Shown: positions 31,934-62,339, counted from the first letter of the stretch. The stretch: 64,000 bases of DNA from Candidatus Woesearchaeota archaeon (GCA_016188045.1 JACPIM010000002.1:17198-81197), one strand, 5' to 3'. Numbers and translations are program-made. The notes: generated from the sequence alone by a model not told the origin.

Positions 31934-31934
31934 A

Positions 31935-32516
31935 TTAATTACCCACAAATTCTTCTCTTTTTCCAATATACAACGGATGTCTTTCAAATAACCTTTCTTT
32001 TATTGCTTCTAGATTTCCTCTTTCCACTCCTTCAAAAGTTTTTAAAAAAGCACAAAGGCTTTTTTCTTGAGCTGATCTTATTTCAGTATTTTTAATTAAG
32101 TCAGTTGCAACAGAAGCATATAACTTTCTAATTTCATCTCCATAAACAAAATCAAATATAGTGGCAACTCTAGTTAGATGATAGTCAGATGTAACAACGA
32201 TTACCCCCTGAATGCTATTAGGCAGAATAATATCTCTCAGAGTAAATACCGCTTGGCCGACAGTATCAACAGAATTAGGTTCTACAAAAATATGGCCTAT
32301 TGGAACTCCGTTTTTTAAAGCATAATCTCTCATATCTTCTCCTTGACTGGTTTTTAGGTGTTCATCTCCTCTGCCGTGATTTCCACTCATAGTTAAACTT
32401 GAAACCAACCCAGAAAAATATTCATTAATTCCATAATCAAGTCTATCTCTAAACTCTTTTCCCAAAGACCCATCATGTTCCCTATTTCTTGATAATATTA
32501 CTGCTGTATCATACAT
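31935..32516 (-). CDS. DUF218 (YdcF/ElyC/SanA-like) domain protein
   Basis: GVIVVTSDYHLTRV motif of DUF218. Start placed at MYDTAVILSRN; the table ORF extends to 32567. Confidence 0.55.
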   Translation of the reverse strand: MYDTAVILSRNREHDGSLGKEFRDRLDYGINEYFSGLVSSLTMSGNHGRGDEHLKTSQGEDMRDYALKNGVPIGHIFVEPNSVDTVGQAVFTLRDIILPNSIQGVIVVTSDYHLTRVATIFDFVYGDEIRKLYASVATDLIKNTEIRSAQEKSLCAFLKTFEGVERGNLEAIKERLFERHPLYIGKREEFVGN

Positions 32517-43849: not shown

Positions 43850-43994
43850 TCCTTAAAACAAATTTTATCTAAACAATAGTTTTATAAAGTATATTTTATA
43901 ATGGTATTGTCTTAATTTAGGGTGATGAATTTACTGTCTTATTTGGGTGATTTAGTCCTCAAATTCCTTATCTTCTTCTCCGTTAGACAAGGCT

Positions 43995-44045
43995 TTGTGT
44001 ATTAAGTAGCTCTTGTGTATAAAGTCTAATTTTTGTGTAAAAAGT
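43995..44045. promoter_or_regulatory. three ~13-nt direct repeats TTGTGTAttAAGT / TTGTGTAtaAAGT / TTGTGTAaaAAGT upstream of the RM gene
   Basis: The units sit at a regular spacing of about 16 nt in the divergent intergenic region. They overlap a possible 54-aa minus-strand membrane ORF (44026..44190). Confidence 0.3.
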
Positions 44046-44240
44046 CCCTGAATAGTAAAATGATGTTTCCAACAATAAAAACACCAGCTAAGATAAGCCA
44101 GGTAAGATTATCTGTGACCACAGTTATAAACATAAACAAGATTGCTAAAATACTAAGTCCTGTTTTTATAATATCATTAGCTATTGTCATTTTTTAATCA
44201 CCATATAACTTTAAATATTAAAGATTTGCCTTATTTAAAG

Positions 44241-46955
44241 ATGATGGGGACAACATCTAAGGAAAAGGCTAAAGAAGAACTTAAAAAACTTATTGAAGAC
44301 TTTAAGATTAATTATCAAGACTACAAGAAGTTAGCAGAAGCAGATATAGAAACAAAGCTAGTTGAAGAATTATTTATTAAAGTATTAGGGTGGACTAAAA
44401 ATGACTTTTTTAAACAAACAAAGACAAGAAGAGAAAGTAAAGGTGGAAGAGCTGATTACGAGTTTAGAATTAATGATAGAATAGTCTTTTTTTTAGAAGT
44501 TAAAAAAGTAGATGTTAATTTAGATAAAGAGGCTAATAAACAAGTAATATCTTATGCTCTTTCAAGAAGAATCCCTTTTGCGATTTCTACCAATTTTAGA
44601 CAATTAAATATTTTCTGTGTTGAACAAGAAAACGCAGTTAATAATGTATTTAGAACTTTTAAAAGTCCAGATGATTACCTCAACAGTTTTGAGGATTTGA
44701 TGTTTCTATCTAAAAAATATTTTGAAAATGGTTTAACCCTAAAAAAAGCAGAAGATGAAAGAAGATTAAAAAAGAGGATAACTATTGACAAAACCTTACT
44801 GAATGATTTTATGCATATAAGAAGCTTGATAGCTAATGATATAGAAAAAAATTATTATGGAACATATGGTATTAATGATAAAGACGAGATAGTACAAAGA
44901 ATTTTAGATAGATTAATTTTTATTAGAAAATGTGAAGATACGGGGATTAATCCAGAAAATATCGTCTTAAGAGAAGTACAATCATTACCACATAACAAAG
45001 CATATCCCAAATTAAAGGAAATTTTTAAGAAATATAATGATATTTACAATAGTGGGCTTTTCGCTATTACGAGAGATAATGATTGTGATACTATAGACGT
45101 TAATGGATTAATAATAAAAGAATTAATTGATTATTTATACGAATCCAAAGATAAACAATATGTCTATAATTTTGATTGGATTGATGCCGATATTTTAGGA
45201 CAAGTTTATGAGCAGTATTTAGGAAAGATATTGGCTCAAACAAAATCAGGTAAGGCTAAACTTAAGGATGGACAATATCATAGAAAAGAACAAGGAATAT
45301 ATTATACTCCAACTTATGTGGTAGATTATATTGTTAAGAGTACGTTAGGGGAATTATTAAAGGATAAAAAAATTGAAGTTAAGAAGTTAAAAATATTAGA
45401 CCCCGCCTCTGGTTCTGGGAGTTTCTTGATTAAAGCATTTGATTACCTAAATGAAGATATATCCAAAACAGATGAATCTAAACAAAGAAAATTCGATAGT
45501 CAGGGGCTTTATTCTATTAAAACAGAAATTTTAAAGAATAACTTATATGGTGTAGATTTGGATAACAAAGCTGTGGAAATAACTAAATTAAACTTACTCC
45601 TTAAGGCTTCTGAAAAGGATAGAAAATTACCTGAAGAACTTGATAGACATATAAAACATGGAAACAGTCTAGTTGATGATGAAAATATTGATAAAAATGC
45701 ATTTAATTGGGAGGATGATTTTAAAGAAGGTAGTTTTGATGTAGTTATAGGTAATCCGCCTTATGTTTTTACAAGAGATGTTGAATTTCAGGATTTATTC
45801 AAAAATTATGTAGCAAAACATTACTTAAATGCTTCAGAATCAATTTCAAAAAGCCATGCGAGACAATCAGGGAAAGTTAATCTATATGCTTTATTTTTAA
45901 TTAAAGGAATTAGGTTGCTTAAAAATCACGGCTTATTTGGATTTATTATACCAAATAATATCTTGAGAACTACTACTTATGACATAATAAGAAAATTTAT
46001 CTTAGATAATTGTAAAATTCTAAAAATCGTTGATTTGGGAGTGGGTGTTTTTGAAGGCGTTACTGCTTCAACTATAATCTTAATCCTAGAAAAAGAGAAT
46101 GAAAAAACAAAAAGGGACAAAAATAAAGCTAGTATTTATTCAGATGTTAACAATTCATCAGATAAAAAGGAAGTTGAACAAAAAGAATTTTTAGGTAATA
46201 CTAGCTATGCCTTTAATATAACTTTGGGAAAAGAAGATAGAACCCTTTTTGATAAAATAGAAAAAAACACGATTCCTTTAGGTGGAATAACCACTATCCA
46301 TGCAGGAGGGATAGCGACAGGAAAAAATAAAAAAGAGATGATAGAAAACTATCCTAAAAATTCTAAATATAAAAAGATGTTAGAAGGCAAAGACATAAAC
46401 CCCTACTATCCTCAATTCTCAAATAGGTATATTTTATATGAAAAGAAACTGTTGTATAGGGCAAGAGAAGAATCTATATTCCTAAACCCAGAGAAATTGG
46501 TTACGCAAAGAATAGGCGGGGGGAATAAGGTTTTGGTTGTAAGCTATGATAACCAACAATTCTATACTTTCAATTCTACAAACACCATTCTTCCTAAGGA
46601 CAAAAATTATCCTTTGAAATATCTTGTTGCAGTATTAAACTCAAAGTTAATAAATTGGTATTATGTAAATAAATTTACTAATAAATCTGAATTAACAGTT
46701 AATATATCAAAAACATTCTTAGAACAACTTCCCATAAAAGATACTTCTGAATCCCGAAAACGAGTAATTATAGAAATGGTAGATAAAATTATAAGTTATA
46801 ACAAAGACTTGGCAAGATTGGGTGATAAAACTACATCTGAAACTAAAGAACTGAATGATAAGATAGAAAAGTTAGATAAAGAAATTAATAAAACTGTTTA
46901 TGATTTATATGGGATTACTGAAAAAGAAAAGGAAATAATTGAAAAACTGGAATAG
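44241..46955 (+). CDS. Type IIG/IIL restriction-modification enzyme (MmeI-like: N-terminal endonuclease + N6-adenine methyltransferase + TRD in one chain)
   Basis: About 905 aa. LDPASGSGSFLI (motif I), VVIGNPPYVFTRD (NPPY motif IV, N6-A MTase) and an N-terminal PD-(D/E)xK-like ADYEF..FLEVKK. Size and order match MmeI. Start taken at ATG 44241 rather than the table TTG at 44184. Confidence 0.75.
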   Translation: MMGTTSKEKAKEELKKLIEDFKINYQDYKKLAEADIETKLVEELFIKVLGWTKNDFFKQTKTRRESKGGRADYEFRINDRIVFFLEVKKVDVNLDKEANKQVISYALSRRIPFAISTNFRQLNIFCVEQENAVNNVFRTFKSPDDYLNSFEDLMFLSKKYFENGLTLKKAEDERRLKKRITIDKTLLNDFMHIRSLIANDIEKNYYGTYGINDKDEIVQRILDRLIFIRKCEDTGINPENIVLREVQSLPHNKAYPKLKEIFKKYNDIYNSGLFAITRDNDCDTIDVNGLIIKELIDYLYESKDKQYVYNFDWIDADILGQVYEQYLGKILAQTKSGKAKLKDGQYHRKEQGIYYTPTYVVDYIVKSTLGELLKDKKIEVKKLKILDPASGSGSFLIKAFDYLNEDISKTDESKQRKFDSQGLYSIKTEILKNNLYGVDLDNKAVEITKLNLLLKASEKDRKLPEELDRHIKHGNSLVDDENIDKNAFNWEDDFKEGSFDVVIGNPPYVFTRDVEFQDLFKNYVAKHYLNASESISKSHARQSGKVNLYALFLIKGIRLLKNHGLFGFIIPNNILRTTTYDIIRKFILDNCKILKIVDLGVGVFEGVTASTIILILEKENEKTKRDKNKASIYSDVNNSSDKKEVEQKEFLGNTSYAFNITLGKEDRTLFDKIEKNTIPLGGITTIHAGGIATGKNKKEMIENYPKNSKYKKMLEGKDINPYYPQFSNRYILYEKKLLYRAREESIFLNPEKLVTQRIGGGNKVLVVSYDNQQFYTFNSTNTILPKDKNYPLKYLVAVLNSKLINWYYVNKFTNKSELTVNISKTFLEQLPIKDTSESRKRVIIEMVDKIISYNKDLARLGDKTTSETKELNDKIEKLDKEINKTVYDLYGITEKEKEIIEKLE

Positions 46956-47072
46956 GGTAAAATAATATCACTTTTAAAGAATAATAAAAATTTATAAAGT
47001 TCCAAAATTATATAATTTTACTATGGAGTGTTGGAAGTGGTGAACCCAACATATGAAATGATAAAAGATAGG

Positions 47073-47194
47073 AGGGGCGATTTCTAAACTTGCCGTTTAA
47101 GGAAATCCCCTTCTTTATCACCATTTTTAAGTGTAAAATTAACTTTTTATAGTTCTTAGTTGTTGTATTATTAACCTTAGACGGCAATTTAAGG
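47073..47194. other. structured GC-richer spacer: extended hairpin (47073-47112) plus a 13-nt inverted repeat (ttgccgtttaagg at 47090 / ccttagacggcaa at 47175)
   Basis: ggggcgatttc..gaaatcccc stem enclosing a taaac/gttta inner stem. A second arm, ccttagacggcaa, is the reverse complement (12/13) of ttgccgtttaagg 85 nt away. Confidence 0.35.
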
Positions 47195-47283
47195 TAATGT
47201 ATTAATGCTGAAGAATTAACTGCTATTGATTACATAAATATATTCATAGTATGCCTAATTCTGAAGTATTAGCATAGCTATTA

Positions 47284-48354
47284 ATGGAGGATTTAATTAA
47301 AATGGATAGACAAATAAAAGTTGAAATAAAATCAAAAGATGGATTGAGGTATGGGGATTTAGAATATGAAGATTGTATTGAAAAATTCCCAAAACAAATA
47401 ATCACTTCTACAAATGAAGGGCATATAAGGAATTTTGATGAAGACATAGATTTAGATACGAAAGCTTTTCAAGTTTTTCTTAATTTATCCTTAGAAGAGT
47501 TAAATGATAATTTTAATTCCAAATCTAAATTGAATAAGATAAGGATAGCCAAGAATTTCATTAATATACCAAAACGCATAAATTGGATTTTGACTAAAAG
47601 TTTTTTCAATACCCCCAGAGTAAGTATAAAAGATTTGGAAAATTCCTTAAAGTTACAAGAACAGATTGGTTGTAAATTAAAGGCTTTGTATATCCCAAAA
47701 AATATTAAACCTAAATTAGCTATTCCAATCCTAAATGAAAATATAGACTCAGTAATTTATTTAGATATGAATGATTTGCCTACTGAATTTAAAGAATTAT
47801 ATTTACACTATTTGAAAATCGGAATTAAAATTATTTGTTTTATTATTAGACAACCTTCTGAAAAGAATGTTGAAAATTATAATTTTATTGCTGGTAGACC
47901 AGAAGATAATATCTTAAGATTGGCTACTCAGTTAACTAAACGAAGTATTATTGCTCAAGATAAAGCCCTGTCTATCTTTTACTATATATTAGGCTTTGAT
48001 GGTTTTGCTTTTAGGGGTGGTCAAAGACCATCTTATAACACAGCAGTTGAAAATCTGGCGATTTATAGAAGAGGAGCATATAAATTTGAAAGTATAGAGT
48101 CTTTTGATAGTTGTTCCTGTAAATCTCATAAAGGCAGTATCCCTTATGACAAGGCTATCGAATATCACGAACAAAAGAAATCTTCAATACCTTCTTCTTT
48201 ACATGACCATATAGAATTAAATGAAGATTTTGCTGAGATAAGAAGAAAAATTATTGAAGGTGAGATTAAAATAGAGGGATTAAAAGAAAAAATAGATTTT
48301 GATTCAACAATGAAGTTGCTTCTTGAGAGAAAGAGAACGAAGAAAAAGAATTGA
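47284..48354 (+). CDS. hypothetical protein downstream of the RM enzyme
   Basis: 356 aa, charged, no recognisable motifs. Separated from the RM gene by a 328-nt structured GC-richer spacer. Confidence 0.4.
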   Translation: MEDLIKMDRQIKVEIKSKDGLRYGDLEYEDCIEKFPKQIITSTNEGHIRNFDEDIDLDTKAFQVFLNLSLEELNDNFNSKSKLNKIRIAKNFINIPKRINWILTKSFFNTPRVSIKDLENSLKLQEQIGCKLKALYIPKNIKPKLAIPILNENIDSVIYLDMNDLPTEFKELYLHYLKIGIKIICFIIRQPSEKNVENYNFIAGRPEDNILRLATQLTKRSIIAQDKALSIFYYILGFDGFAFRGGQRPSYNTAVENLAIYRRGAYKFESIESFDSCSCKSHKGSIPYDKAIEYHEQKKSSIPSSLHDHIELNEDFAEIRRKIIEGEIKIEGLKEKIDFDSTMKLLLERKRTKKKN

Positions 48355-48564
48355 TTTGAACTGTTGGATATTCCTCTCTCCAAATTTTTTTATTTTTTTC
48401 TGTTCTATGTGGTTACATTCTAAAGGTTTATCTCCTATTTTCCAATTTTTACAACAAGAACACATATGGTTACTATTCCATTCTAAAATGAAATCTAAAA
48501 TTTCCCTTTCTAATTGGTCTTGTTTAAATCTCCATACTGCCTCTAAGTGAATAAAAGAAGTCAT
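48304..48564 (-). CDS. questionable small Cys/His-rich ORF (HNH-like C-x2-C ... C-x-H spacing)
   Basis: 86 aa with HMCSCCKNWKIGDKPLECNH. It overlaps the 3' end of 47284..48354 convergently by 51 nt, so it may be shorter or spurious. Confidence 0.2.
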   Translation of the reverse strand: MTSFIHLEAVWRFKQDQLEREILDFILEWNSNHMCSCCKNWKIGDKPLECNHIEQKKIKKFGERNIQQFKSILFLRSLSLKKQLHC

Positions 48565-48824
48565 CTACGTTTCACCTCTATCTTAACTAATACAAGACTT
48601 CCTTTTTTAATCCCTAAAACTTCACATTCTGGCTTTGGAATATTTATACTAAGACTACTCCCATTATTAGAAATATACTGACTGAAACACCTCTCTTTTT
48701 CTTTCATCTGATTTAATCTGATTTAATCAGATATATAAACATACCGATTCCACTACCGAAACCTTTATATATAAGTTATACTATCTATATTATATAGATA
48801 ATATGAATAAGTGAGGTAATAAAC

Positions 48825-48947
48825 ATGGGAAAATTCATAATAGATTTACCAGAAGAGCTACACGATAAACTACGACATAGAAGCATAGACGAAAAAAAAG
48901 ATATTCAGCAACTCATATTAGAAGCCTTAAAGAAAAATATTAAATAA
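48825..48947 (+). CDS. ribbon-helix-helix (CopG/Arc-like) DNA-binding protein, 40 aa, absent from the supplied ORF table
   Basis: MGKFIIDLPEELHDKLRHRSIDEKKDIQQLILEALKKNIK shows a beta-strand (KFIIDLP) followed by a two-helix pattern typical of RHH antitoxin/repressor proteins. It lies immediately upstream of the transposase. Confidence 0.45.
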   Translation: MGKFIIDLPEELHDKLRHRSIDEKKDIQQLILEALKKNIK

Positions 48948-48954
48948 AAATTAA

Positions 48955-48971
48955 GCGGGGACAAGCCCCGC
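48955..48971 (+). other. GC hairpin gcggggacaagccccgc between the RHH gene and the transposase start
   Basis: Perfect 6-bp GC stem with a 5-nt loop in an otherwise AT-rich region, 12 nt before the AGGAG-ATG of the transposase. Confidence 0.4.
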
Positions 48972-48982
48972 AGGAGTCCAAA

Positions 48983-50185
48983 ATGTCGCAAAACAAAATG
49001 AACAACCTAGAAAATAACAAGGTCTTAAACCTTAAAAAACTATCGCAGGATAGAACAGAAAGGGCTTATGCTATTCTAAGAAATGGCAACCCAGAAATAG
49101 TAAATGAACAGGAATTTTTAGTTCCAGCTTCTAATCCAAAATATAAATATAAAGTTACTCATGTAGATAGCTGGACTTGTGAATGCCCAGATTTTCAAGA
49201 AAGATGTAAAAATAATGGAATGTATTGTAAACATATTAAAGCAATACAGTTTTTCTTAAAACTACAGAATAAAGTAGAAGTTGATGAATTAAATTTTAAC
49301 ATTGAAGAAAGACAAAGTAGAAAGTGTCCTAATTGTAAAAGCAGTAAAATAGTAAGAAATGCCAAAAGAAAAACCAAATCTGGAATTAAACAAAGATATT
49401 TATGCAAAAATTGTAAGAAAAGATTTGTTTTAGAGCCAATTAGATATATTCAAGTTAATGCTAAAATATTATGCTTGATTATGAATGAGTATTTTAAAGG
49501 ACATTCTTTAAGGGATATACAAGACACTTTAGACCAATTCTTTCAAGTTAAATTATCGCCCGAAACTGTTAGAAGGTATATCAGTAAGTTTACTAAGCTA
49601 ATGGATAGCTATGTAAAAACAAAGGCTAATCCTGAAACTTTGAAATTAGGCGGAACTTGGCAATGTGATGAGCAGACAATTAAAGTAGGAAAAGAACTAT
49701 TATGGGATTGGAATGCGATTGATACTGAAACTAAGTATCTTTTAGCTAACAATATAACTAAGTCAAGGTATTATGAAGATATGGTTAAGATAGCAAGTAA
49801 ATCCAAAGAAGAAGGCGGTAGACCTGATGAATTTAGAACTGATGGATTACAAGGCTATAATAATGCAGTAAAAGAAGCTTTTGAATTAGATAAATTACAA
49901 TTTCCCTATACTGTCCATATTAAATCTAAAGGCTTTAGGAATGAAATTAATACTAATTTAATTGAGAGATACCACTCTGAATTTAGGGAGTTTGATAAAA
50001 TAAGAAGAGGGTTTGGTAATATGGATACAGCACAAGGTTGGAATGATGGCTATAGATTATTTCATAATGTAATTAGAAAGAATATGGCTTTGAATGGCTT
50101 AACTCCTCTAGAGATGGCTAAGGTTGATTTAGAACTCGGTAGGAATAGATGGTATGGGCTATTATTGAAAAGTTTAAATTGCTAA
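48983..50185 (+). mobile_element. IS6-family DDE transposase with N-terminal SWIM-type zinc finger and zinc ribbon (IS boundaries not resolved)
   Basis: The catalytic core aligns with IS26-type Tnp: WQCDEQTIKV (D), WNAIDTETK (D), FRTDGLQGYNNA, NLIERYHSEFRE (E). N-terminal CECPDF..CKHIKA and CPNCKS..CKNCKK zinc fingers occur in archaeal IS6 members. Confidence 0.8.
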
Positions 50186-50193
50186 AAATTTTT

Positions 50194-50475
50194 TTATTCT
50201 TTTAGTTTGTTAAGTTTTATTTCTAATTCTTTAAATTTGGAATCAAAAACTAATTTCATTATAAACACTAAAATTATGAATACCATTACTGCTTCAAATT
50301 TTATAAGCAATACTAAGTCTGCATCTATGGTATTAGATAAATCTGTGAATAGAAATGTAATTATGATAGTGGCTAAAATTATATGCAGGATATTTGAGGA
50401 GTTTATTAATTTTTGATGCTGTAAGTCATATATATTTTTTTCTAGTGTTTTTAATTCCATTTTATGAGTATACAT
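50194..50475 (-). CDS. hypothetical membrane protein
   Basis: 93 aa with 2 TM helices and a C-terminal coiled-coil-like tail. Confidence 0.3.
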   Translation of the reverse strand: MYTHKMELKTLEKNIYDLQHQKLINSSNILHIILATIIITFLFTDLSNTIDADLVLLIKFEAVMVFIILVFIMKLVFDSKFKELEIKLNKLKE

Positions 50476-50656
50476 CTATAAAATAAATTAGGGCGATAAT
50501 AAAAAATACCCCCCCGAGAATAGTGCTACCTATAGTGTAACCACCGAATTTTACAGAAAAGGGTGCTGATACCATAACTATTAATAGACTTATAATTATA
50601 GTGAATATAGAGAATGTTCTTTGATTATCCCTTCTACTAAATGGACTCAAAACCAT
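50462..50656 (-). CDS. hypothetical small membrane protein
   Basis: 64 aa with 2 TM helices. Overlaps the downstream gene by 14 nt. Confidence 0.3.
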   Translation of the reverse strand: MVLSPFSRRDNQRTFSIFTIIISLLIVMVSAPFSVKFGGYTIGSTILGGVFFIIALIYFIDVYS

Positions 50657-50797
50657 ATATAAGACTAGATTTATCTTATTTAAATAATTGATGTTTTACT
50701 AGTGGTAGTAAATAAATCACCCGAATTGGACAGAAAGGGGAAATAATAAAAAATGACCCGACTTTGAGACAATACCTTTATAATATATATTTTTAAA

Positions 50798-51526
50798 ATG
50801 ACATATTTAGAAGAGCAAGTAAGAGAAGCCCTTGCTTGCAAAATAGCTAATGAGTTATTTGCATATATAATTGGAGATAAAGAATGTCAAGCCAAGATAA
50901 CTCAAGCTATTAGACAAGCCACAGATTACGTTACTGAAACATATCTAAGTAGGGTCGAGAAAAAGATTAAGCCAATTAAAAAGTTTTTATTTCTATCAGA
51001 ATATGAAAATGAACTCAAACAAGGATTTTATAGGGAATTAATTCAAAGAGCATTATTACAATCAATGAATCTACTAATTTCATCTGAGGAGTTATCTGCC
51101 AGGTTAAACCGCTTTAAAAGAGACGAACCGATCCCAATTGGAGGTGGGGAATATATTCCACATGATAAACATGAAGTTAAAACAAAAAAAGAACTAATAA
51201 GGATATGCGAAGAGTTAAGTGAAGTAGGAAAAACAAATGATGAGATAATAAGAAGATTAGTAGACAGGACAAAAGTAGTAGGACTAGAAAGAGCCCTCCA
51301 AGAAGAAAAAGCCGCTATAAGAGAGATATTCCCCATATCAGACCAATATAAGGCATTTGTAACAGCACTGTGGAAAACCATACCAAATATAGGAAAAATT
51401 CCAACAGGCAAAAAACCCATGGGAAAAATGTTGGATCAATTAATGATTAAATTATTTGATGAGAGTAAAGACGGTTTCTTAGATCAAAGAGTTAAGCAAA
51501 TTTACAGAGACTACAACAAAAGATAA
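50798..51526 (+). CDS. hypothetical protein
   Basis: 242 aa, charged and helical. No recognisable motif. Confidence 0.4.
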   Translation: MTYLEEQVREALACKIANELFAYIIGDKECQAKITQAIRQATDYVTETYLSRVEKKIKPIKKFLFLSEYENELKQGFYRELIQRALLQSMNLLISSEELSARLNRFKRDEPIPIGGGEYIPHDKHEVKTKKELIRICEELSEVGKTNDEIIRRLVDRTKVVGLERALQEEKAAIREIFPISDQYKAFVTALWKTIPNIGKIPTGKKPMGKMLDQLMIKLFDESKDGFLDQRVKQIYRDYNKR

Positions 51527-51533
51527 AATAAAA

Positions 51534-51851
51534 TTAAGCCCCCTCTTGAATATATTTTTTTCCAGTTTCTAAACAGTTCTTAGCATTAGCTAATTCTCTT
51601 CCTAAATATGCAGAATGATCCAATCTGGTAATCCATTTATCTTCTATTATTCTTTTGGCTAGAGCAACAGAATCTTTGCTTCTATATGCTTTAATCAGTT
51701 CATATTTATAATTGCAAATACCAACTTCAATTTTTTTGTTTCTTAGTCTAATCAAAAGAAAACACTTTTTATCAATAACTACATGTTTTTTAAATTCTCT
51801 AACTTCTACAAATTTCAATTTTTTTGGTTTTTTTATTGGGTGCAATTTCAT
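51534..51851 (-). CDS. hypothetical protein
   Basis: 105 aa, basic. No recognisable motif. Confidence 0.3.
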   Translation of the reverse strand: MKLHPIKKPKKLKFVEVREFKKHVVIDKKCFLLIRLRNKKIEVGICNYKYELIKAYRSKDSVALAKRIIEDKWITRLDHSAYLGRELANAKNCLETGKKYIQEGA

Positions 51852-51905
51852 AAATCATAAACTCATGCGTTAAACTTATAAACTTTATCATTAAATGATT
51901 TCGCA

Positions 51906-54529: not shown

Positions 54530-54754
54530 ATGATAGAAATAAAATCTAAACTAAGAAGATGGGGTAATTCATTTGGTATAGTAGTACCACAAAGCGCTTT
54601 AAAAGAAGATACCAGAATACGAGAAAATGAAGAAGTAGTTGTTATGATAATTAAAAACAAACCAAATCTAAGGAAATTTTTTGGTGCTCATAAATTTAAA
54701 AAGCCAGTAGAGCAAATGATGAGAGAGATTGATAAGGAATTATATAATGAATGA
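54530..54754 (+). CDS. AbrB/MazE-family (SpoVT-AbrB fold) antitoxin, VapB-like
   Basis: KLRRWGNSFGIVVPQS is the swapped-hairpin motif of AbrB/MazE antitoxins. 74 aa, upstream of and overlapping the PIN gene. Confidence 0.65.
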   Translation: MIEIKSKLRRWGNSFGIVVPQSALKEDTRIRENEEVVVMIIKNKPNLRKFFGAHKFKKPVEQMMREIDKELYNE

Positions 54755-55115
54755 AGATACTTTCCTTTATGATACTTATGCCCTAATAGAGATTTTAAAT
54801 AAGAATATAAACTATGAAAAATTTACAGAAACAGGTTTAGTTATTAATGATTTTATCTTCGCCGAACTTTGTTTTAAATTGTTTCGAGAAGGAGTTAATG
54901 TAAATGAATATATTGCAGAAGTTTCACCAGCAATTATCCATGCCACTCCTAAAATTATTATAAGAGCAATGTTATTTATAATAGATAATAAAGACAAAAA
55001 TCTATCTATGACAGATTGTATTTCTTATATCCAATCAAAAGAACTAGGAATCAAATTTCTAACAGGGGATAAACAATTTGAAAATTTAGAAAACGTTGAG
55101 TTTGTAAAAAAATAG
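54747..55115 (+). CDS. PIN-domain ribonuclease toxin, VapC-like
   Basis: N-terminal FLYDTYALIEIL (first catalytic Asp) and C-terminal FLTGDKQF. Start taken at MNEDTF rather than the table start at 54729. Confidence 0.6.
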   Translation: MNEDTFLYDTYALIEILNKNINYEKFTETGLVINDFIFAELCFKLFREGVNVNEYIAEVSPAIIHATPKIIIRAMLFIIDNKDKNLSMTDCISYIQSKELGIKFLTGDKQFENLENVEFVKK

Positions 55116-55143
55116 AAATAAAATAAAAAAAGAAATTAGTCGG

Positions 55144-55773
55144 CTATTTAGTTGCCTTTGGTTTTGGATAACCAGCATATACAAACTCATCCAATAATGC
55201 GAGCTTGTCTGATGGTACCATTACTAAAGAATTGCCGCTGTCTGCAGGAAGCCATATAGGGCTTCTTGAACCCTCTTCAAATCTAATTTTTTTTGAGACA
55301 TCTGAGCTAATATCGGCCACCCAGAGATGATACTCATCCTCACCACTTAACCAATCCTTATATGTAAGTTTTTTACCTCTCCACTTACCTGCTGCTTCTT
55401 CTGGAATTAATTCATCCAACTTAAAACCCAAAAACGCAGGCAGATTTCCGTGATAAGCTTCATTTATTCTTCCAAAAACATCATCAAGCTGTTTACTGAA
55501 ATCATAAAGTCTATAGTCTAGTCTGCTAGGTAAGGTAAATCTATCCAACTTTTCACTACCCTCTCTTTCAAGTCCTAACTCTTCCTCAACTTCTCTTTCA
55601 AGTCCTTCCACAGGCGTTTTATCGGTTTCTTCAATTCCACCACCCACTAAAGAACAAGCACCAGGAAATAAAAAAGGATACTTTCCAGGCTCAAATTTCG
55701 GTACAAAAACATCCCTTCTTTGTACTAAATATAATCCATCTTCATTTCTTATAATGAGGTTAACAGTTCTCAT
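55144..55773 (-). CDS. Nudix hydrolase
   Basis: GGGIEETDKTPVEGLEREVEEELGL matches the Nudix box G-x5-E-x7-REUxEExGU. Confidence 0.7.
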   Translation of the reverse strand: MRTVNLIIRNEDGLYLVQRRDVFVPKFEPGKYPFLFPGACSLVGGGIEETDKTPVEGLEREVEEELGLEREGSEKLDRFTLPSRLDYRLYDFSKQLDDVFGRINEAYHGNLPAFLGFKLDELIPEEAAGKWRGKKLTYKDWLSGEDEYHLWVADISSDVSKKIRFEEGSRSPIWLPADSGNSLVMVPSDKLALLDEFVYAGYPKPKATK

Positions 55774-55774
55774 T

Positions 55775-56428
55775 TTAACATCTAACTCCCAGACTCATTA
55801 AGTCTTGTTTTAATTTATTAGCATCTAAATCATTTTTAGTATCATACACAATACCATGCATTCCTAATTCATTTGCAACAGCAGCATATTTTGCCTTATC
55901 ATCAATATACGCACAATTCCCAGCTTTAGAACCAGATCTCCGCAAAGCTTCTCTGTAGATCAAATGGTTTGGTTTCATTACACCGACCCCATAGGAAGTA
56001 ACAATTCCACCTTGTTCAAATTTACTTAATGTTTTTGGCATTAATCTCCATGCTTGTTGCATGTTTAAGGGATCTGTATTCGATACTGCCAGCAATTTAT
56101 ACCTACCATATAAACTATTAATTAAATCACAAACTGGTTTATTTGGTCCTAATATTAAACTATTCCATAAATTTGCAAATTCAAAAAAAGACAAGGCATT
56201 TTGACTTATGCCTAAAGCTTCACAACTTCTTTCATAATACCCCAAAGAACTTATCTTACCAGTATTATGTAATCTGTCTGGTCCAAGACTTTCTGGTGTG
56301 TCATCAAAAATTTTTGCTACTCCTTCTTTACTTCTCGAACTTAACTTAGCAAACCATTCATAAACAGGATCCATACTAAAAAAATAACAAACATCTCCAA
56401 GATCAAACATAATTGTTTCTATTGCCAT
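55775..56428 (-). CDS. HAD-superfamily phosphatase, YihX-like (subfamily IA variant)
   Basis: N-terminal IMFDLGDVCYFF (compare E. coli YihX IFDLGNVIVDID) and a C-terminal YIDDK motif. Paralog of 57446..58120; both end ..LGVRC. Confidence 0.6.
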   Translation of the reverse strand: MAIETIMFDLGDVCYFFSMDPVYEWFAKLSSRSKEGVAKIFDDTPESLGPDRLHNTGKISSLGYYERSCEALGISQNALSFFEFANLWNSLILGPNKPVCDLINSLYGRYKLLAVSNTDPLNMQQAWRLMPKTLSKFEQGGIVTSYGVGVMKPNHLIYREALRRSGSKAGNCAYIDDKAKYAAVANELGMHGIVYDTKNDLDANKLKQDLMSLGVRC

Positions 56429-56484
56429 TATATTTAACTCTAACTTTGATATCTTTGCGGCATAGTTTCTTTAATAACTTCTAT

Positions 56485-57444
56485 TTATTCTACTAATTCT
56501 GGATGCCTTATAGCATAAGACCACAACAAGTGTCTTGAGATTGGCATTAAATTGTTTCCTTGCACTTCAACAAAACCTGCTAAATCTTCTAATCTAACAG
56601 TGCTTGAACCTGTGTATTTGCTACCCTTATGGAACTGTCCAAAATCTTCCACTTTACATGGCAACTTAATGTGTATAGTATGGCCAACACCGGCACCAAA
56701 ATGAGGTGCTGATATAAAGAACGCCCCAAGTGATTCTAGTTTTGCACTTTCTATTATATCATCAGGCAAATTTGATTGTTCTGCGAGTTGTTTTTTGATT
56801 AAGGTTTCTAAAGGTGATCTATTTGCCATATCATCACCAGATAGTTCACTTAAACCTTCTGTATAAAAATATCCTTTAGGATAGAATTCTCTTTCAATCT
56901 CTTGGTCTGTATGCTGAATACCCTTGCTTCTGTCTCCCAATAAAACATACCTTTTTGATTCATCATCAGTCAATATTACAAAAGAAGAGGGTCCAAAAGA
57001 CCAAACAACAGTTACCGGATTAATTTTGTGTACTGTAGTCTGCTCTACAAAATTTGTTTGTCCCAAATATATTATGGCTTGGTATTTTCTAGAATCCATG
57101 AAACTAACACTATGGCTTTCGTACTTCATCATAGGTCTGCTGAATCTTACCGGTTTGCTAGTCTCTACATTGTACAATGCAAGAGATGGGCTACTTCCAT
57201 CATGAGGTCTAATTTCTGTTTTAATACCTTTTTCTGCAAGTTCTGCTTTTGCTTTTTCCAAATCAAGATTCCATTGAGCTTCAACTTTTTTAGAAATTTC
57301 TTCATTTATTCTGGATTTGGGATCATACCTGAGGCTTATTGATCCTGTGAACACAGGAGGCACCATGGTATGAACTAAATAAGGCTCATCTGCCATCTGC
57401 ATACTACAAAGAGCCACTAACTTATCATAATCTGCCTTTCTCAT
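56485..57444 (-). CDS. hypothetical protein (GC-richer block)
   Basis: 319 aa with no recognisable motif. Its start abuts the stop of the upstream HAD paralog by 1 nt. Confidence 0.4.
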   Translation of the reverse strand: MRKADYDKLVALCSMQMADEPYLVHTMVPPVFTGSISLRYDPKSRINEEISKKVEAQWNLDLEKAKAELAEKGIKTEIRPHDGSSPSLALYNVETSKPVRFSRPMMKYESHSVSFMDSRKYQAIIYLGQTNFVEQTTVHKINPVTVVWSFGPSSFVILTDDESKRYVLLGDRSKGIQHTDQEIEREFYPKGYFYTEGLSELSGDDMANRSPLETLIKKQLAEQSNLPDDIIESAKLESLGAFFISAPHFGAGVGHTIHIKLPCKVEDFGQFHKGSKYTGSSTVRLEDLAGFVEVQGNNLMPISRHLLWSYAIRHPELVE

Positions 57445-57445
57445 T

Positions 57446-58120
57446 TTAACATCTAACTCCCAATTTTCTTAAATCATTTATCAATAATTCATCTCTTTTA
57501 TCTTCATTATCCCAATCATAATGTACACCACGCATTCCTAATATTATGGCTGGTTTAACATACTTTAGTCTATCATCTACATAAACACATTCATCAGATT
57601 GAGCATTTGCAACTGCTATTGCTTCCAAATAATTTTTTTCATTTGGTTTCATACTGCCAACTTTATATGATGTAACAATTCTACCTTTAAATAATCTCAT
57701 AGTAGCAGGAATAATATTCATAATCTGCTTCATTTGTATTGGGTTAGTATCACTTAATGAAACCAACTGATAACCCCTGCTATCTAATCGTTGTGCTAAA
57801 CCACATACCGGTTTATTTTCAGTAAAAATATCACCCCAAGCCCTAGCAAATTCATCAAAACTCATATTTTTTAATTTTAATCTTTCACACATCCACTTAT
57901 AAAATTCTTCATCACTAATAACATTAGTATTATACCTAGCTAATGTATCCGTTTTTTTAGAAGTACCGTATTTTAACACTTCTTTATCAGAAGTTTCATA
58001 AACAATTCCTTCCATTTGAGAAGCAGGAACATCAGTAAACCTAGCAAATCCATTCCAAGCCCTATTAAGGTCAAAATCAACCAAGACTTTGCCTAAATCA
58101 AAAATAACTGTTTTTATCAT
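57446..58120 (-). CDS. HAD-superfamily phosphatase, YihX-like (paralog 2)
   Basis: MIKTVIFDLGKVLVDFD and YVDDR motifs. The C-terminal LRKLGVRC tail is shared with 55775..56428. Confidence 0.6.
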   Translation of the reverse strand: MIKTVIFDLGKVLVDFDLNRAWNGFARFTDVPASQMEGIVYETSDKEVLKYGTSKKTDTLARYNTNVISDEEFYKWMCERLKLKNMSFDEFARAWGDIFTENKPVCGLAQRLDSRGYQLVSLSDTNPIQMKQIMNIIPATMRLFKGRIVTSYKVGSMKPNEKNYLEAIAVANAQSDECVYVDDRLKYVKPAIILGMRGVHYDWDNEDKRDELLINDLRKLGVRC

Positions 58121-58155
58121 GACAAAACCAATAAGAAAGCCATTTTTAAATGTTT

Positions 58156-59232
58156 CTACTGTCTAAAAGTAAATTTTTCACTACCTTCAGTAATATCAAC
58201 CATTTCAACAACTAAACCTCTTTTTTCTAAAGCAGTTTTAGCTTCTTCAAAAATACCGTGATTATTATTTCTCAAGTAGGAAAGTATACCCCCAATAGTG
58301 TCATCAACAAGACCAGTTTTACTGTAATCATCTTCACTTATCAGAGGAGCAAACTTAACTCCTCTTTTATCCACAAGTGGTTTTCCATCAAATAACAAAT
58401 GGATTCTATCTAAAGGTAAGAAGAAAACAGAATCGTGCTCTAAGTGAACACGATCATATTTTTTAGCTCTTTTCATAGTTGCTAATAATTCATCTCGCGT
58501 TAAATCACCAAACCTATATACCCAAGTTAAACTAGGCAGATAAGAATTATATAAACCTCTAACTAATCCAGTAAGTTGCAATCTTTTAACATCAATCTCA
58601 GAAGGGTTTAATCCGCTTTCTTCACTTAATTCAGCAATTGCTTGTTTAGTAAAATCAGTAATCTCAACTTTTCTTCCATCAATCTCATTAACACTAGAAA
58701 TAAAACCAGAAAAAACATTATATCTTCCAGGACCCTCACTTAATTGCCTGGATCTTCTCAATAAAACAATTTCATCATCTTTAGTTACTCCTAAAATATT
58801 CTGTGTTAGCCCAAAATAAAAATTAGCCAAATATAATGTTCTATTTTGTTCTATCACCTTTCTAAGGCCAGTAAATTTACCATCATTTAAAATCTTTAAT
58901 GAGTTAGCTCTATTTCTAACTAGAGATAAAAAAGCCAGTGCCTCTATTGAATTACTATCCCCAACTTCATAAACTACTTTTCCATCAACTATATTAAGGG
59001 AATGCAAAGTTGGTATGCTAGAACTATACCAATGAAAATTTAATTCATTATTTCTCTTTGCAAATTCTCTAAATTCTTCAGCTAATTTTTTATCATCAAA
59101 TATTCTTGTTTCTACTTTTCTAACAGAAATATCATCTTTTCCTTTGATACCATGACTTAAAATCTGAATTTTTCTTTCCATATTATGTGTAAATTCATTA
59201 ACCAATAACATAATAAGCGCTTTGTTTTCCAT
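58156..59232 (-). CDS. hypothetical protein, possibly degenerate Nudix-fold
   Basis: 358 aa. GFISSVNE...QAIAELSEESGL resembles a Nudix box with altered spacing and R-to-A substitution. Confidence 0.4.
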   Translation of the reverse strand: MENKALIMLLVNEFTHNMERKIQILSHGIKGKDDISVRKVETRIFDDKKLAEEFREFAKRNNELNFHWYSSSIPTLHSLNIVDGKVVYEVGDSNSIEALAFLSLVRNRANSLKILNDGKFTGLRKVIEQNRTLYLANFYFGLTQNILGVTKDDEIVLLRRSRQLSEGPGRYNVFSGFISSVNEIDGRKVEITDFTKQAIAELSEESGLNPSEIDVKRLQLTGLVRGLYNSYLPSLTWVYRFGDLTRDELLATMKRAKKYDRVHLEHDSVFFLPLDRIHLLFDGKPLVDKRGVKFAPLISEDDYSKTGLVDDTIGGILSYLRNNNHGIFEEAKTALEKRGLVVEMVDITEGSEKFTFRQ

Positions 59233-59309
59233 TCAAAATATTAATACTATCTCTTGGTGGTAAAAATAGTAAACTTTATAAACCATTTTTAAACATATTT
59301 CCCTATAAA

Positions 59310-60887
59310 ATGGCAAATAACAGAACAATAAGAGAAGAAACCTTAGTAAATTGGCAATCTATTTTTAATGGCGATTATTCACAAGTATTAAGGGGAAGAA
59401 TAGAAGAAACTGGTTCAGCCAGACAAGAAACTAATGATAAAGAAGATTTCGATGACGATCTGGACTTGGCCATAGTTTCAACTAGACAAAAAACAAGAGA
59501 TAATGGCTACGACTTAAAAAAAGAACAAGAAGGTAGGAAAAGCGATCTTAATCTTTCTGATATAACTTGGGAATTGCAAAAAGCATCAAGAGAACTAAAA
59601 GGCATTCATGAATATTTCAGTGGTGTTTTTGCCAGAGACATATTTATGTTTCCATTTGTAGATTTAAAATGGATAGCTCAGATGCATGATTCAGTAGAAG
59701 AGTTAAAAATCAGACCACAATTAGTGCATAAGATAGATAGTGGACTTAATGGTCTATCAGATAGACTTAATTATTTAAAAGAATTGTATCATCAACACGA
59801 AATAGATTTTTTAGAGTTTGAAAGAGAAGGCTTAGAGGCTTTTTCAATTTTAGGTAAGCCATTAGATAGAGCAAGAACTAGGTTGCTAAGAGATTTAGGA
59901 GACATTTTACAATCTCAACATTGGCCAGAATCCCCAATAGGAGATTATCTAAAAATAGTCACATCTAAATCTGCGAAAGTAAGGGCAAATAGCCGAGGAT
60001 TTGAATTGTTTTCAGAGAATGATGAAATAAAACCAGAAATAGCAAATAGTAGATTTTTTACCCCAACAACAGCACTAGTTCAAAACTGTATGGAACAAAG
60101 TTCTCAAAGAGGAAGGGCATATTTATTGTTGAATACAGCACTTAATCTTGTAACGTATTTATCCTCATTGGCTTTATGGGCCAGAGAACGCGGGTTTACA
60201 AGACCCCAATTTAATGATAATGATTCGGTAGATATAAAAAATGGTTATCATCCACTATTAAAATCAGAAGACAGAAAGGTTAAAAGAGAACCAGTAACAC
60301 ACGATACTCGTTTAAACAGCGGAAATAACTTGCTAATTGTAACAGGACCAAATGCAGCAGGCAAAACAACATATTTAAAAGAATTAGCTCTAATTTCAAT
60401 TTTAGCTCAAGCAGGCGGTTTTGTTCCAGCAGATTATGCAAACTTACCTATATATAGAAGATTTTTAACTCACTTTTCTGCAAGCGAGGATTTAATGTCT
60501 GATCTATCATTATTCCAAGCAGAAATTACTCAATTAAATGGTAGATTGAACAGATTAGAAGAAAGAACCTTGTTTATTTGTGATGAGTTATTTAGAGGAA
60601 CAGAATCTGGTGAAAATGGCGGCGCAAAGCTACATTCAGCCCTAGTAGAGGCTTTATCTTATGATTTCCCAGGACGAACACTATTGTCTACACATTATCA
60701 TGAAGCCCTAGCAAAACAGAGAAATTTACGAAATGCAGTATTTGTTAAAGTTAATACTGATAAAGCAGGAACGCCATCATATACCATTAGTAGGGGAATA
60801 GACAGTGGTGGCTATGCAGTTCAAGCAGCAATAAGAATGGGCTTATCGGATAAAATTTCAAAAAGATTAACAAATGGTGGAGAATAA
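59310..60887 (+). CDS. MutS-family ATPase lacking the mismatch-binding domain (MutS core + domain V only)
   Basis: LIVTGPNAAGKTTYLKELALISILAQAGGFVPA (Walker A of MutS domain V), LFICDELFRGTES (Walker B/DE), TLLSTHYHEAL (ST-H motif), preceded by SLALWARERGFTRPQF...GYHPLL (MutS lever/clamp junction). No N-terminal mismatch-recognition domain and no Smr domain. Confidence 0.7.
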   Translation: MANNRTIREETLVNWQSIFNGDYSQVLRGRIEETGSARQETNDKEDFDDDLDLAIVSTRQKTRDNGYDLKKEQEGRKSDLNLSDITWELQKASRELKGIHEYFSGVFARDIFMFPFVDLKWIAQMHDSVEELKIRPQLVHKIDSGLNGLSDRLNYLKELYHQHEIDFLEFEREGLEAFSILGKPLDRARTRLLRDLGDILQSQHWPESPIGDYLKIVTSKSAKVRANSRGFELFSENDEIKPEIANSRFFTPTTALVQNCMEQSSQRGRAYLLLNTALNLVTYLSSLALWARERGFTRPQFNDNDSVDIKNGYHPLLKSEDRKVKREPVTHDTRLNSGNNLLIVTGPNAAGKTTYLKELALISILAQAGGFVPADYANLPIYRRFLTHFSASEDLMSDLSLFQAEITQLNGRLNRLEERTLFICDELFRGTESGENGGAKLHSALVEALSYDFPGRTLLSTHYHEALAKQRNLRNAVFVKVNTDKAGTPSYTISRGIDSGGYAVQAAIRMGLSDKISKRLTNGGE

Positions 60888-60889
60888 AA

Positions 60890-61423
60890 ATGGAAAAACC
60901 GCATGATTGTGAAATGTGTCAAGGAGATGGTTACTTTGATGATTTTCAAGCTGGTTTGTATCCCATGCCTTGTCCAAATTGCGCCGGAATAGGCATTAGT
61001 GGGGCAGTTTCAGAAGATGTAAAATTAAAAATAGCGCAATTAAAAGAAAAAGCTTACAACAACATATCTGCTCAAACACAAAGATTAGAAATTGCTGGAC
61101 AACTTCTAAGGGCGGGCGTCCTATCTGGTATATATCTCTTAGAAGGCAATGCCTCTAAAGCAAGAGATAGTAAAAAATTAGCAGATAACTTAGTAAAAAG
61201 ATTGCAATCATTTCCACAGGACTATATATCGGTGGAATCTGAAGTTATAAAAGAAACATGGGAGCAAGTTGTTGATTTAGTTGATGATAAATATAAATCA
61301 AGAGCAGAACAAAACAAAAAAAGGATAGTTGATAAAACATTAAGAGAAATTGTAGCAATAGAATTACAAAGTAAAAAAGCCAGAAGTATGGGCTTTGGAT
61401 ATCCCGCATTTAAAATAAATTAA
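60890..61423 (+). CDS. DnaJ-type (CR) zinc-finger protein
   Basis: CEMCQGDGY and CPNCAGIGI are two C-x2-C-x-G-x-G units, followed by a helical charged domain. Starts 3 nt after the MutS-like stop. Confidence 0.5.
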   Translation: MEKPHDCEMCQGDGYFDDFQAGLYPMPCPNCAGIGISGAVSEDVKLKIAQLKEKAYNNISAQTQRLEIAGQLLRAGVLSGIYLLEGNASKARDSKKLADNLVKRLQSFPQDYISVESEVIKETWEQVVDLVDDKYKSRAEQNKKRIVDKTLREIVAIELQSKKARSMGFGYPAFKIN

Positions 61424-61445: not shown

Positions 61446-62339
61446 ATGGCTCTATTTTATCAAGGACCAAAAACATTAGAAAGACCGATTATAGCAGTTT
61501 ATGAGGTCTCTAGCAAACACCTCTCAAGAGATACAGATTTAGAAGTGATAGTTGGAGAAATTGAAAAAATTGAAATCATCCAAGGAAAACTAAGTATTAA
61601 AGGAGACCAAGAAGCAAATTCTTTAATAGATAAGGCCCATAGAAAAGCAATTCAACCAAACGGGGTAATCTCTAGTTTAGAAGATTTTAAGGAATTACAA
61701 AGAATTTGTCAAGAACTAACCTTACAAGCATTTAATAGAACGGGAGCAGGAGGCGGGCATAATCCACCAATGGATTTTGTATACATACCACCAAGTGAAG
61801 CTTTAAATTGTGAAGTTTTCTTTCCAATGAACACTCAAAACCTTATAGCGCGCGCTAATCCACACTTACTTGAAAACCATTATAAAGCATTAAAATTTCC
61901 ATTTATCTTTGCACATGAATTAGTTCACTGGGATCTAGCAGGAACAAGATTTTATGCTGCTGCAAGAAAAGCTTTCTTGGAATTAGAACCAGTTTACGAT
62001 AAAAAAGTACACGGAAAATATCCAGCACCAACCGAAGATGCCTCTCATTTGTTTAAAAGACCAGGATCAGAAAGTATTGGAAGATTGCAAATACAAGAAT
62101 TACAATTAGGACTTAGGGAATTTGGAGAAGCAATAGCGGATTTAATCTCAAAAAAAGTATTTCCCCCGTCACCATTTGTAGAATTAATAGACTCTCAATT
62201 ATCAACAAGACCTAAAAGAATCGAAGAAATACAAAAAAGATTAAATTCATTTCAAAGTCCTAAAGAACTTTTAGTATATGCAAAACAGAAAATTGATGAA
62301 TCATATGATAGAAATAAACCAATCACAGAATTAATTTAA
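61446..62339 (+). CDS. putative HExxH zinc-metallopeptidase-like protein
   Basis: FIFAHELVHWDLAG contains HExxH. 297 aa with no other recognisable motif. Confidence 0.4.
   Translation: MALFYQGPKTLERPIIAVYEVSSKHLSRDTDLEVIVGEIEKIEIIQGKLSIKGDQEANSLIDKAHRKAIQPNGVISSLEDFKELQRICQELTLQAFNRTGAGGGHNPPMDFVYIPPSEALNCEVFFPMNTQNLIARANPHLLENHYKALKFPFIFAHELVHWDLAGTRFYAAARKAFLELEPVYDKKVHGKYPAPTEDASHLFKRPGSESIGRLQIQELQLGLREFGEAIADLISKKVFPPSPFVELIDSQLSTRPKRIEEIQKRLNSFQSPKELLVYAKQKIDESYDRNKPITELI

Follow-up and report, generated by a model that had tools for sequence, protein, structure and literature searches.

What do five closely spaced genes do, when they encode a string of Nudix-like proteins and phosphatases in a tiny, symbiotic and uncultured archaeon? 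The question is raised by a 64,000-nucleotide stretch of a Candidatus Woesearchaeota (DPANN) metagenome-assembled genome (GCA_016188045.1, JACPIM010000002.1:17198-81197), hereafter the window, which holds five minus-strand genes at positions 55144 to 59232. An initial annotation, made from the sequence alone, had described them as a duplicated module of an unknown protein and a YihX-like haloacid dehalogenase (HAD) phosphatase, capped by a Nudix hydrolase. We find that the first protein of the string, X, is homologous to human NUDT22, that the two HAD proteins are paralogs with affinity to the glucose-1-phosphatase YihX, and that the genes lie in a nucleotide-sugar context. We propose, with a probability of about 0.5, that the operon would carry out a two-step breakdown of nucleotide-sugars by interleaved Nudix-fold proteins and YihX-type HADs, a scheme suggested because the products of a NUDT22-type reaction are the substrates of YihX-type enzymes.

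Anatomy of the locus

All five open reading frames (ORFs) were confirmed on the minus strand at the coordinates and in the order that the initial annotation had given. In transcription order, with their flanking elements, they are:

59182..59309, strand not assigned: divergent intergenic region between X and a MutS-like gene, AT-rich, with a TTTATAAA element; presumed promoter
58156..59181, minus strand: X, NUDT22-like Nudix-fold protein (predicted), 341 aa counted from M18; the longest ORF, extending to 59232, is 358 aa
57446..58120, minus strand: HAD-A, YihX-like HAD-IA phosphatase, 224 aa; FDLGKV, LSDTN, MKPN, YVDDR
56485..57444, minus strand: Y, orphan protein, 319 aa; Nudix-like segment at residues 166-242, box KQLAEQSNL
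55775..56428, minus strand: HAD-B, YihX-like HAD-IA phosphatase, 217 aa; FDLGDV, VSNTD, MKPN, YIDDK
55144..55773, minus strand: Nudix-209, Nudix hydrolase, 209 aa; PF00293 at residues 2-79, the remaining C-terminal 130 aa uncharacterised
55105..55143, minus strand: oligo-T-rich tract directly after the Nudix-209 stop (coding strand TTTCTTTTTTTATTTTATTTCTATTTTTTT); presumed archaeal-type terminator and operon end

The gaps between the genes, from X to Nudix-209, are 35, 1, 56 and 1 nt, the single-nucleotide spacings falling between the HAD-A stop and the Y start and between the HAD-B stop and the Nudix-209 start. Together with the long oligo-T tract past the last stop codon, this spacing fits a single operon, and we infer that the five genes are co-transcribed. 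Sequence conservation of the intergenic region 59182..59309 was looked for in the relatives of the locus and not found.

X is 100% identical to NCBI HYV88_00445. Its real start is probably M18 (58156..59181) rather than the start of the longest ORF, because all six X homologs begin at X residue 18 and DNA conservation with three related loci starts exactly at this internal ATG. The longest-ORF start adds 17 codons at 59182..59232 (MENKALIMLLVNEFTHN) that are conserved in no relative, and is a probable start-codon mis-call.

The cluster is richer in GC than its surroundings, as had been claimed: its GC content of 33.1%, against 30.0% for the window, is the highest of all same-size windows (+2.1 standard deviations). 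The codon-usage check gave ordinary values, with GC at third codon positions (GC3) of 0.164-0.259 for the cluster genes against 0.216+-0.031. The excess therefore sits in codon positions 1 and 2 and reflects amino-acid composition. Foreign origin by horizontal transfer, which the GC excess had led us to consider, was rejected on the average GC3.

Homology of protein X to human NUDT22

X consists of an N-terminal domain, a Nudix-like core at approximately residues 126-260 (RRS...PGRYNVFSGF...AELSEESGL) and a C-terminal extension of approximately 80 aa. It had no Pfam, NCBIfam or PADLOC match. Close relatives are few: there are only 7 clusters, all from Woesearchaeota/Nanoarchaeota, and an exhaustive hidden Markov model search of 1.8 billion representatives returned only eight distant relatives. 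Two of the distant relatives fall just short of the Pfam NUDIX cut-off of 21.1 bits, P0016 with 17.6 and P0018 with 19.0, and one of these borderline relatives has the same Arg-to-Ala variant of the Nudix box as X, AELEEELGV. A profile search of genome contigs with the X family returned only the loci already known.

Two profiles were built, A3 from X and its distant relatives and A4 from A3 with the addition of two further proteins described below, the 30878 protein of the window and protein Z of related loci. P0012 and P0019 were the only additions from a last word-indexed search with A3. Compared with the PDB, the family profile matched human NUDT22 with E=2.7e-9 (A3) and E=1.8e-10 (A4), over approximately 180 positions that run from the end of the NUDT22 N-terminal domain (starting at residue 78-105) through the Nudix domain. 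HHalign of the family profile against this NUDT22 fragment gave a probability of 96.5% (E=9.8e-10), and the X family alone gave 67% (E=5e-5).

Human NUDT22 is a UDP-glucose/UDP-galactose pyrophosphatase (PDB 5LF9/5LOR). X shares with it a nearly identical strand-loop, RRSRQ[LV][SA]E[GA]PG (in general form RRSRQ-x-[AS]E-x-PG), a length of approximately 300-340 aa, and a non-canonical Nudix box that lacks the Arg and keeps three acidic residues. These are E184, E187 and E188 of X, which stand opposite E, D and E in the NUDT22 alignment; E188 is shared by all 16 family members. Overall identity is very low, X has AGF/SGF where NUDT22 has PGG, and the C-terminal extension, common to P0011-P0017, lies outside the NUDT22-aligned region, which ends near profile position 246 of 311. 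X, an archaeal protein of predicted activity, further differs from NUDT22 in that its gene shares an operon with those of HAD phosphatases. NUDT22 is itself an outlier of the human Nudix family and has no conventional Nudix box (PMC5688067); none of the NUDT22-like proteins that we scanned reaches the Pfam NUDIX gathering score. On these residues and alignments we classify X as a predicted, divergent NUDT22-like Nudix protein with its acidic triad intact.

The HAD paralogs and their affinity to YihX

The initial annotation had called the HAD genes YihX-like paralogs, and both parts of this description stand. HAD-A and HAD-B are 37% identical (E=9e-43) over their full length, so the likeness is not confined to generic HAD motifs. 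Both begin with FDLGxV, and the window copies both end in LGVRC. PF00702 matches HAD-A with 37.9 bits and HAD-B with 27.2 bits, each above the gathering cut-off of 26.4, and HAD motifs I to IV are complete in both as FDLG[KD]V, [LV]S[DN]T[ND], MKPN and Y[VI]DD[RK]. No HAD paralog besides these two was found in the window.

The best PDB match of both proteins is Escherichia coli YihX (2b0c/8pno), with E=8.5e-13 over the full length for HAD-A and E=1.8e-7 for HAD-B, and the top NCBIfam family for both is glucose-1-phosphatase PRK09456 (HAD-A E=1.7e-20). The alignment with YihX is full-length, including core and cap, with FDLGxV (Gly at D+2) and motifs II-IV in common; it is distant, at approximately 25% identity judged by eye in the alignments rather than computed. 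The locus differs from the YihX case in having two HAD paralogs, each translationally coupled to one Nudix-fold gene (Nudix-209 or, probably of this fold, Y); to our knowledge, E. coli yihX is not paired with a Nudix gene.

Orthologs of HAD-A, 63-77% identical, are present in all four related loci, and L004 also has one of HAD-B (49% identical). With YihX as the root of a distance tree, the HAD-A orthologs of four loci and the HAD-B proteins of two loci are reciprocally monophyletic, with bootstrap support of 200/200 and 199/200 respectively, and the split between HAD-A and HAD-B thus predates the lineages compared.

YihX is described as a hydrolase selective for glucose-1-phosphate (PMC8943214). 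We consider HAD-A and HAD-B to be putative sugar-1-phosphate phosphatases.

Proposed chemistry

NUDT22 hydrolyses UDP-glucose to UMP and glucose-1-phosphate (PMC10101856). In the scheme that we propose, X would likewise cleave the pyrophosphate of a nucleoside diphosphate (NDP)-sugar in a first step, giving a nucleoside monophosphate (NMP) and a sugar-1-phosphate. In the second step HAD-A and HAD-B would remove the anomeric phosphate to give free sugar and inorganic phosphate (Pi), for a net reaction of NDP-sugar + 2 H2O -> NMP + sugar + Pi.

NUDT22 has also been proposed as a candidate decapping enzyme for RNA capped with UDP-Glc or UDP-GlcNAc (PMC11253889), and NUDT22-like proteins of this locus might likewise free the 5' ends of RNA from UDP-sugar caps. 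We see this as pure speculation and as barely credible, since the locus has no RNA-metabolism neighbours and the pairing with sugar-1-phosphatases is better explained by small-molecule products.

Further Nudix-like proteins in the window and at related loci

Nudix-209 is a recognizable Nudix protein, with a PF00293 score of 39.7 bits against the cut-off of 21.1. Its box, GGGIEETDKTPVEGLEREVEEELGL (GGGIEE...REVEEELGL), matches GX5EX7REUXEEXGU save for a single residue inserted between its Gly-Glu and RE elements. Its PDB matches are weak only (NudI, E=0.04), and an ortholog of 208 aa (54% identical) is present in L004. HHalign of Nudix-209 against the X profile gave E values of 1.6e-4 to 8e-5. 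With its canonical box, Nudix-209 may act on a different NDP-X substrate from that of X.

As a control, the X-family profile was scored by HHalign against every other ORF of the window that reaches 150 aa, 56 in all. The scores, with a median of 14.4 over all 56, were:

30878..31987 protein, 369 aa: score 70.7 (probability 96.3%, E=1.8e-9, 171 columns), best of the 56
Nudix-209: score 35.5
Y: score 28.8 (E=0.003), third best of the 56
Other 53 window proteins: scores of 18.5 or less

The best-scoring protein lies well outside the operon:

30878..31987, minus strand: NUDT22-like paralog, 369 aa, with an intact box (KEIREEIGI) and a PAGF motif

Its gene sits between GT2 and DUF218 genes, beside an RmlA-like nucleotidyltransferase. 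Protein Z (352 aa), found at the related loci L001 and L005, is likewise NUDT22-like (probability 64%, E=6.6e-5); it has the box REFFEEV, and its alignment is co-linear beginning with the N-terminal domain. By its profile matches the operon would read Nudix-HAD-Nudix-HAD-Nudix, with the third position, Y, probable only.

Protein Y, a probable degenerate member

Only 2 clusters of Y sequences are known. Neither library nor single-sequence scans gave a Pfam, NCBIfam, PADLOC or PDB match for Y, and Y showed no likeness to the NUDT22 fragment when the two were compared directly. Shallow profiles of four families (X, Y, Z and Nudix-209), compared with one another, gave nothing significant. What likeness there is comes from HHalign against the X-family profile, which gave E values of 0.0096, 0.003 and 0.02 and always aligned X 137-207 with Y 166-242. 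The Y score of 25.8 compares with 14.8+-2.7 for a column-shuffle null, with 0 of 150 shuffles reaching it (z of approximately 4).

Y keeps the family-signature residues R172, S173, P189, Y192 and G197. At the three acidic positions it has Q219, E222 and Q223, and the two Gln are conserved in both known Y sequences. Judged by these residues Y lacks the acidic triad and should not be classed as an active Nudix hydrolase. We lean, by a little, towards Y being a catalytically degenerate NUDT22-like paralog: having kept the fold signature and lost two metal-ligand glutamates, it would be a non-catalytic or altered-function protein, for example a substrate-binding partner.

The initial annotation had seen weak Nudix-box-like segments in both unknown proteins and in the 30878 gene. 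That observation is strengthened for X (NUDT22, E=1.8e-10) and for the 30878 gene (E=1.8e-9) and is still weak for Y (E 0.003-0.02). Pairwise, X and Y show no similarity by BLASTP, and what the two may share is a remote Nudix core, seen at those same HHalign values.

Nucleotide-sugar context

The window as a whole is a large island of surface-glycan genes, whose products include PMT-type and GT2/GT4 transferases, flippases, radical-SAM enzymes, an RmlA-like nucleotidyltransferase, an RmlD-like reductase, a dehydratase of the PseB/CapD type, an NDP-hexose C-methyltransferase and a PIG-L deacetylase. Two of the distant X relatives are found in comparable surroundings: the genes for P0012 and P0019 (L009 7001..7978 and L011 4149..5168) lie inside NDP-sugar operons (SDR epimerase, DegT, NTP_transferase, 4,6-dehydratase) next to AglB/STT3, in a fixed slot between the SDR epimerase/dehydratase and the DegT aminotransferase. 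Their hosts are marine and other archaea. This fixed position suggests that a step of an archaeal N-glycan sugar pathway has gone unrecognised.

The suggestion of the initial annotation that the cluster processes a nucleotide-sugar is thus the best functional reading, given the NUDT22-like X, the NDP-sugar operons of P0012 and P0019 and the glycan island. For the ADP-ribose-like metabolite that the annotation had named as an alternative, the results speak neither for nor against. The likely purpose of a two-step breakdown would be to trim or recycle the pools of nucleotide-sugar that the surrounding island makes and to salvage the NMP, and such salvage would suit an organism with reduced nucleotide biosynthesis.

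The same surroundings bear on a biosynthetic role, in which Nudix and HAD enzymes would release a free modified sugar from its NDP form for a later step of surface-glycan synthesis; we regard this role as possible and on balance unlikely. The pair would then replace single-enzyme NDP-sugar hydrolases such as those of the PseG/LegG-type steps of nonulosonic-acid pathways, and the later step could be a condensation, a second activation with a different nucleotide, or methylation by the methyltransferase conserved next to the cluster. The cluster does stand in a conserved block with methyltransferase, GFO/IDH/MocA, GT2, acyl-CoA-synthetase-like, hexapeptide acyltransferase and DegT genes, and P0012 and P0019 are placed mid-operon among NDP-sugar modification genes, not at the edges. 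Set against this, no Pfam match to a sugar-condensing (NeuB-type) enzyme or a CMP-transferase was found among approximately 40 of the 57 ORFs of at least 150 aa, a scan outside which most of the 1-16 kb region lies. The biosynthetic role would use the same chemistry as two-step breakdown and differs from it in purpose alone.

Weighing the proposed breakdown

Several results weigh against the two-step breakdown. The proposed chemistry is read from sequence and gene context. X has no match to Pfam NUDIX (PF00293) at E<=0.1 and so stays below the gathering cut-off, and its link to NUDT22 needs a profile that includes the distant relatives; as a single sequence, X matches NUDT22 in the PDB with a sub-threshold E=0.8. 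The AlphaFold2 model of X, built from a 7-sequence alignment, has a pLDDT (predicted local distance difference test score) of 47 and a best Foldseek match of E 0.34, and that of Y, built from 2 sequences, a pLDDT of 35 and a best match of E 1.4; both matches are noise. The homology of Y to the Nudix family is only suggestive. The NCBIfam YihX equivalog NF006991 scores 73.6 bits with HAD-A and 49.8 bits with HAD-B against a cut-off of 295, and at scores so far under the cut-off the YihX substrate cannot be transferred to the two proteins; the substrate range of HAD phosphatases is in any case notoriously hard to predict. Finally, no HAD gene neighbours P0012, P0019 or the P0013-17 subfamily, and in a metagenome scan the P0013-17 subfamily stands in a housekeeping context with no sugar genes. 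The HAD pairing is therefore lineage-specific, and the sugar context is not universal in the wider X family. The same scan rules out Nudix-HAD pairing as a general feature of that family.

Some of these results would fit nucleotide house-cleaning or salvage without sugars, in which the substrates of the Nudix proteins would be (d)NTPs or other NDP-X compounds and the HADs, as 5'-nucleotidases, would yield nucleosides. Both HADs weakly match the pyrimidine 5'-nucleotidase families TIGR01993 and YjjG, a further point against sugar-1-phosphatase activity; the weak best matches of Nudix-209 are NudI, MutT and RppH; and the context of the P0013-17 subfamily is a non-sugar one. Three observations make house-cleaning unlikely in our judgement: X has one significant relative of solved structure, the UDP-hexose enzyme NUDT22, the HADs match the YihX glucose-1-phosphatase best by a wide margin, and the context both here and for P0012 and P0019 is nucleotide-sugar metabolism. 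House-cleaning, RNA decapping and the defence role considered below are all less well supported than two-step breakdown.

Gene order in relatives

The initial annotation had inferred a local duplication of an [unknown + HAD] module. The related loci, with N for Nudix-fold and H for HAD genes, are arranged as follows:

Window: N-H-N-H-N
L004 (X 81% identical to that of the window): X, Y, HAD-A, HAD-B, Nudix (N-N-H-H-N)
L001/L002 (X 63% identical): X, insertion sequence (IS) element, HAD-A, Z; no HAD-B and no Nudix
L005 (X 83% identical): X, HAD-A, Z; the contig ends there

In the window and in L005, X lies directly beside HAD-A; only the IS separates the two in L001, and only Y in L004. The slot after HAD-A is taken by Z instead of Y in L001 and L005. 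The locus is thus a variable array of two gene kinds, Nudix-fold and HAD. Duplication of the module en bloc is unsupported, because X and Y have diverged far more than HAD-A and HAD-B, because the 1-nt couplings join HAD-A with Y and HAD-B with Nudix-209 and not an unknown protein with a HAD, and because the different order in L004 fits independent tandem duplications with rearrangement at least as well. The split of the HADs, as noted, is also older than the lineages compared.

The IS, with a DDE_Tnp_1 transposase on the opposite strand, lies at 11016..11873 in L001 and 6771..7628 in L002. It overlaps the final 35 nt of X, giving that ortholog an altered C-terminal tail (...REGALVQPSK).

Flanking genes and the MutS-like ATPase

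On one side the conserved flank comprises a methyltransferase and a 297-aa HExxH protein, the latter absent from L001; on the other it comprises a GFO/IDH/MocA oxidoreductase, AlaE, GT2 and, except in L004, a PIN toxin-antitoxin pair. In the window, two further genes stand between X and the 297-aa gene:

59310..60887, plus strand: MutS domain-V-only ATPase, 525 aa, transcribed divergently from X
60890..61423, plus strand: zinc-ribbon protein, 177 aa, with N-terminal CxxC...CxxC

They and the 297-aa gene follow one another on the same strand, spaced by 2 and 22 nt. Neither of the two occurs at this position in L001, L004 or L005, and their absence from three relatives marks them as a strain-specific insertion between X and the 297-aa gene. 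In L005 the 297-aa gene is directly beside X, in L004 an unrelated 224-aa gene lies between them, and in L001, without the 297-aa gene, the methyltransferase abuts X.

The initial annotation had suggested a tie to the MutS-like operon, and a defence system, or one linked to ADP-ribose or NAD, could be imagined in which the five genes work with this ATPase. The divergent MutS-like and zinc-ribbon genes do adjoin X, the PIN toxin-antitoxin pair lies downstream, and Nudix enzymes can act on ADP-ribose. We think such a system very unlikely. The MutS-like and 177-aa genes are missing from all three relatives, the GC3 of the cluster is ordinary, and PADLOC found no significant defence match for the five proteins, the sole match being that of Nudix-209 to PDC-S07 (E=0.004, 14.8 bits). 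The proposed tie is not supported.

Some other features of the flanks were recorded. The 297-aa protein (61446..62339, plus strand) carries the HExxH motif FAHELVHWD and has no Pfam match, and the 224-aa protein of L004 (4196..4870), unrelated to it, also has an HExxH motif (HEAGHAD); both may be uncharacterised metallopeptidase-like proteins. The PIN pair, an antitoxin-like gene (74 aa, with a weak AF2212-like match) and a PIN toxin (128 aa) at 54530..55115 on the plus strand, converges on the 3' end of the operon and is found at the same position in L001/L002. At approximately 43850..51900 the window has an insertion of approximately 8 kb relative to L001, where a radical-SAM/B12 gene is directly followed by GT2-AlaE-GFO/IDH. 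The insertion contains a 923-aa type IIG Eco57I/MmeI-like restriction-modification enzyme (44184..46955), an IS240-type DDE transposase (48983..50185) and two unannotated ORFs. Further away, at 22193..22357 on the plus strand, the Rfam RNA family RT-16 matches with 54.1 bits against a gathering score of 50, with no reverse transcriptase nearby; its neighbours are an unannotated 246-aa ORF (at 37.5% the second most GC-rich gene of the window), a methyltransferase and a GT2 gene.

Implications

A Nudix-fold enzyme within a surface-polysaccharide cluster has a known counterpart in the E. coli GDP-mannose mannosyl hydrolase NudD/WcaH, which belongs to the colanic acid cluster and is presumed to act on a nucleotide-sugar of that cluster. 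We compare the two by description only: WcaH/NudD is a small single-domain protein that cleaves at the sugar C1 to give GDP and mannose, and it works without a partner phosphatase. A search of the literature accessible to us found no account of archaeal NUDT22-like proteins or of Nudix/YihX operons. The enzyme classes and their chemistry are already known and the operon arrangement is undescribed, so that the advance is incremental.

With this analysis, four 'hypothetical proteins' from an uncultured archaeon become candidate enzymes open to testing. It also suggests that NUDT22, whose physiological role is still debated, has archaeal relatives, some of them in nucleotide-sugar/N-glycosylation clusters. 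A broader conjecture, which we offer very tentatively, is a DPANN-specific nucleotide-sugar 'disassembly line' in which NUDT22-like paralogs of differing NDP-sugar specificity, including Y as a pseudo-enzyme that has given up catalysis for binding or regulation, would each be matched with a sugar-1-phosphatase and would feed NMPs and sugars, gained from scavenged or surplus nucleotide-sugars, to a nucleotide-auxotrophic symbiont; the 'unique' human NUDT22 fold would then derive from an archaeal nucleotide-sugar family. A Nudix and YihX-type pair of this kind could serve as a biocatalytic pair. If the proposed breakdown is true, its two-step route from NDP-sugar to free sugar and NMP would be relevant to nucleotide salvage in DPANN archaea with reduced biosynthesis.

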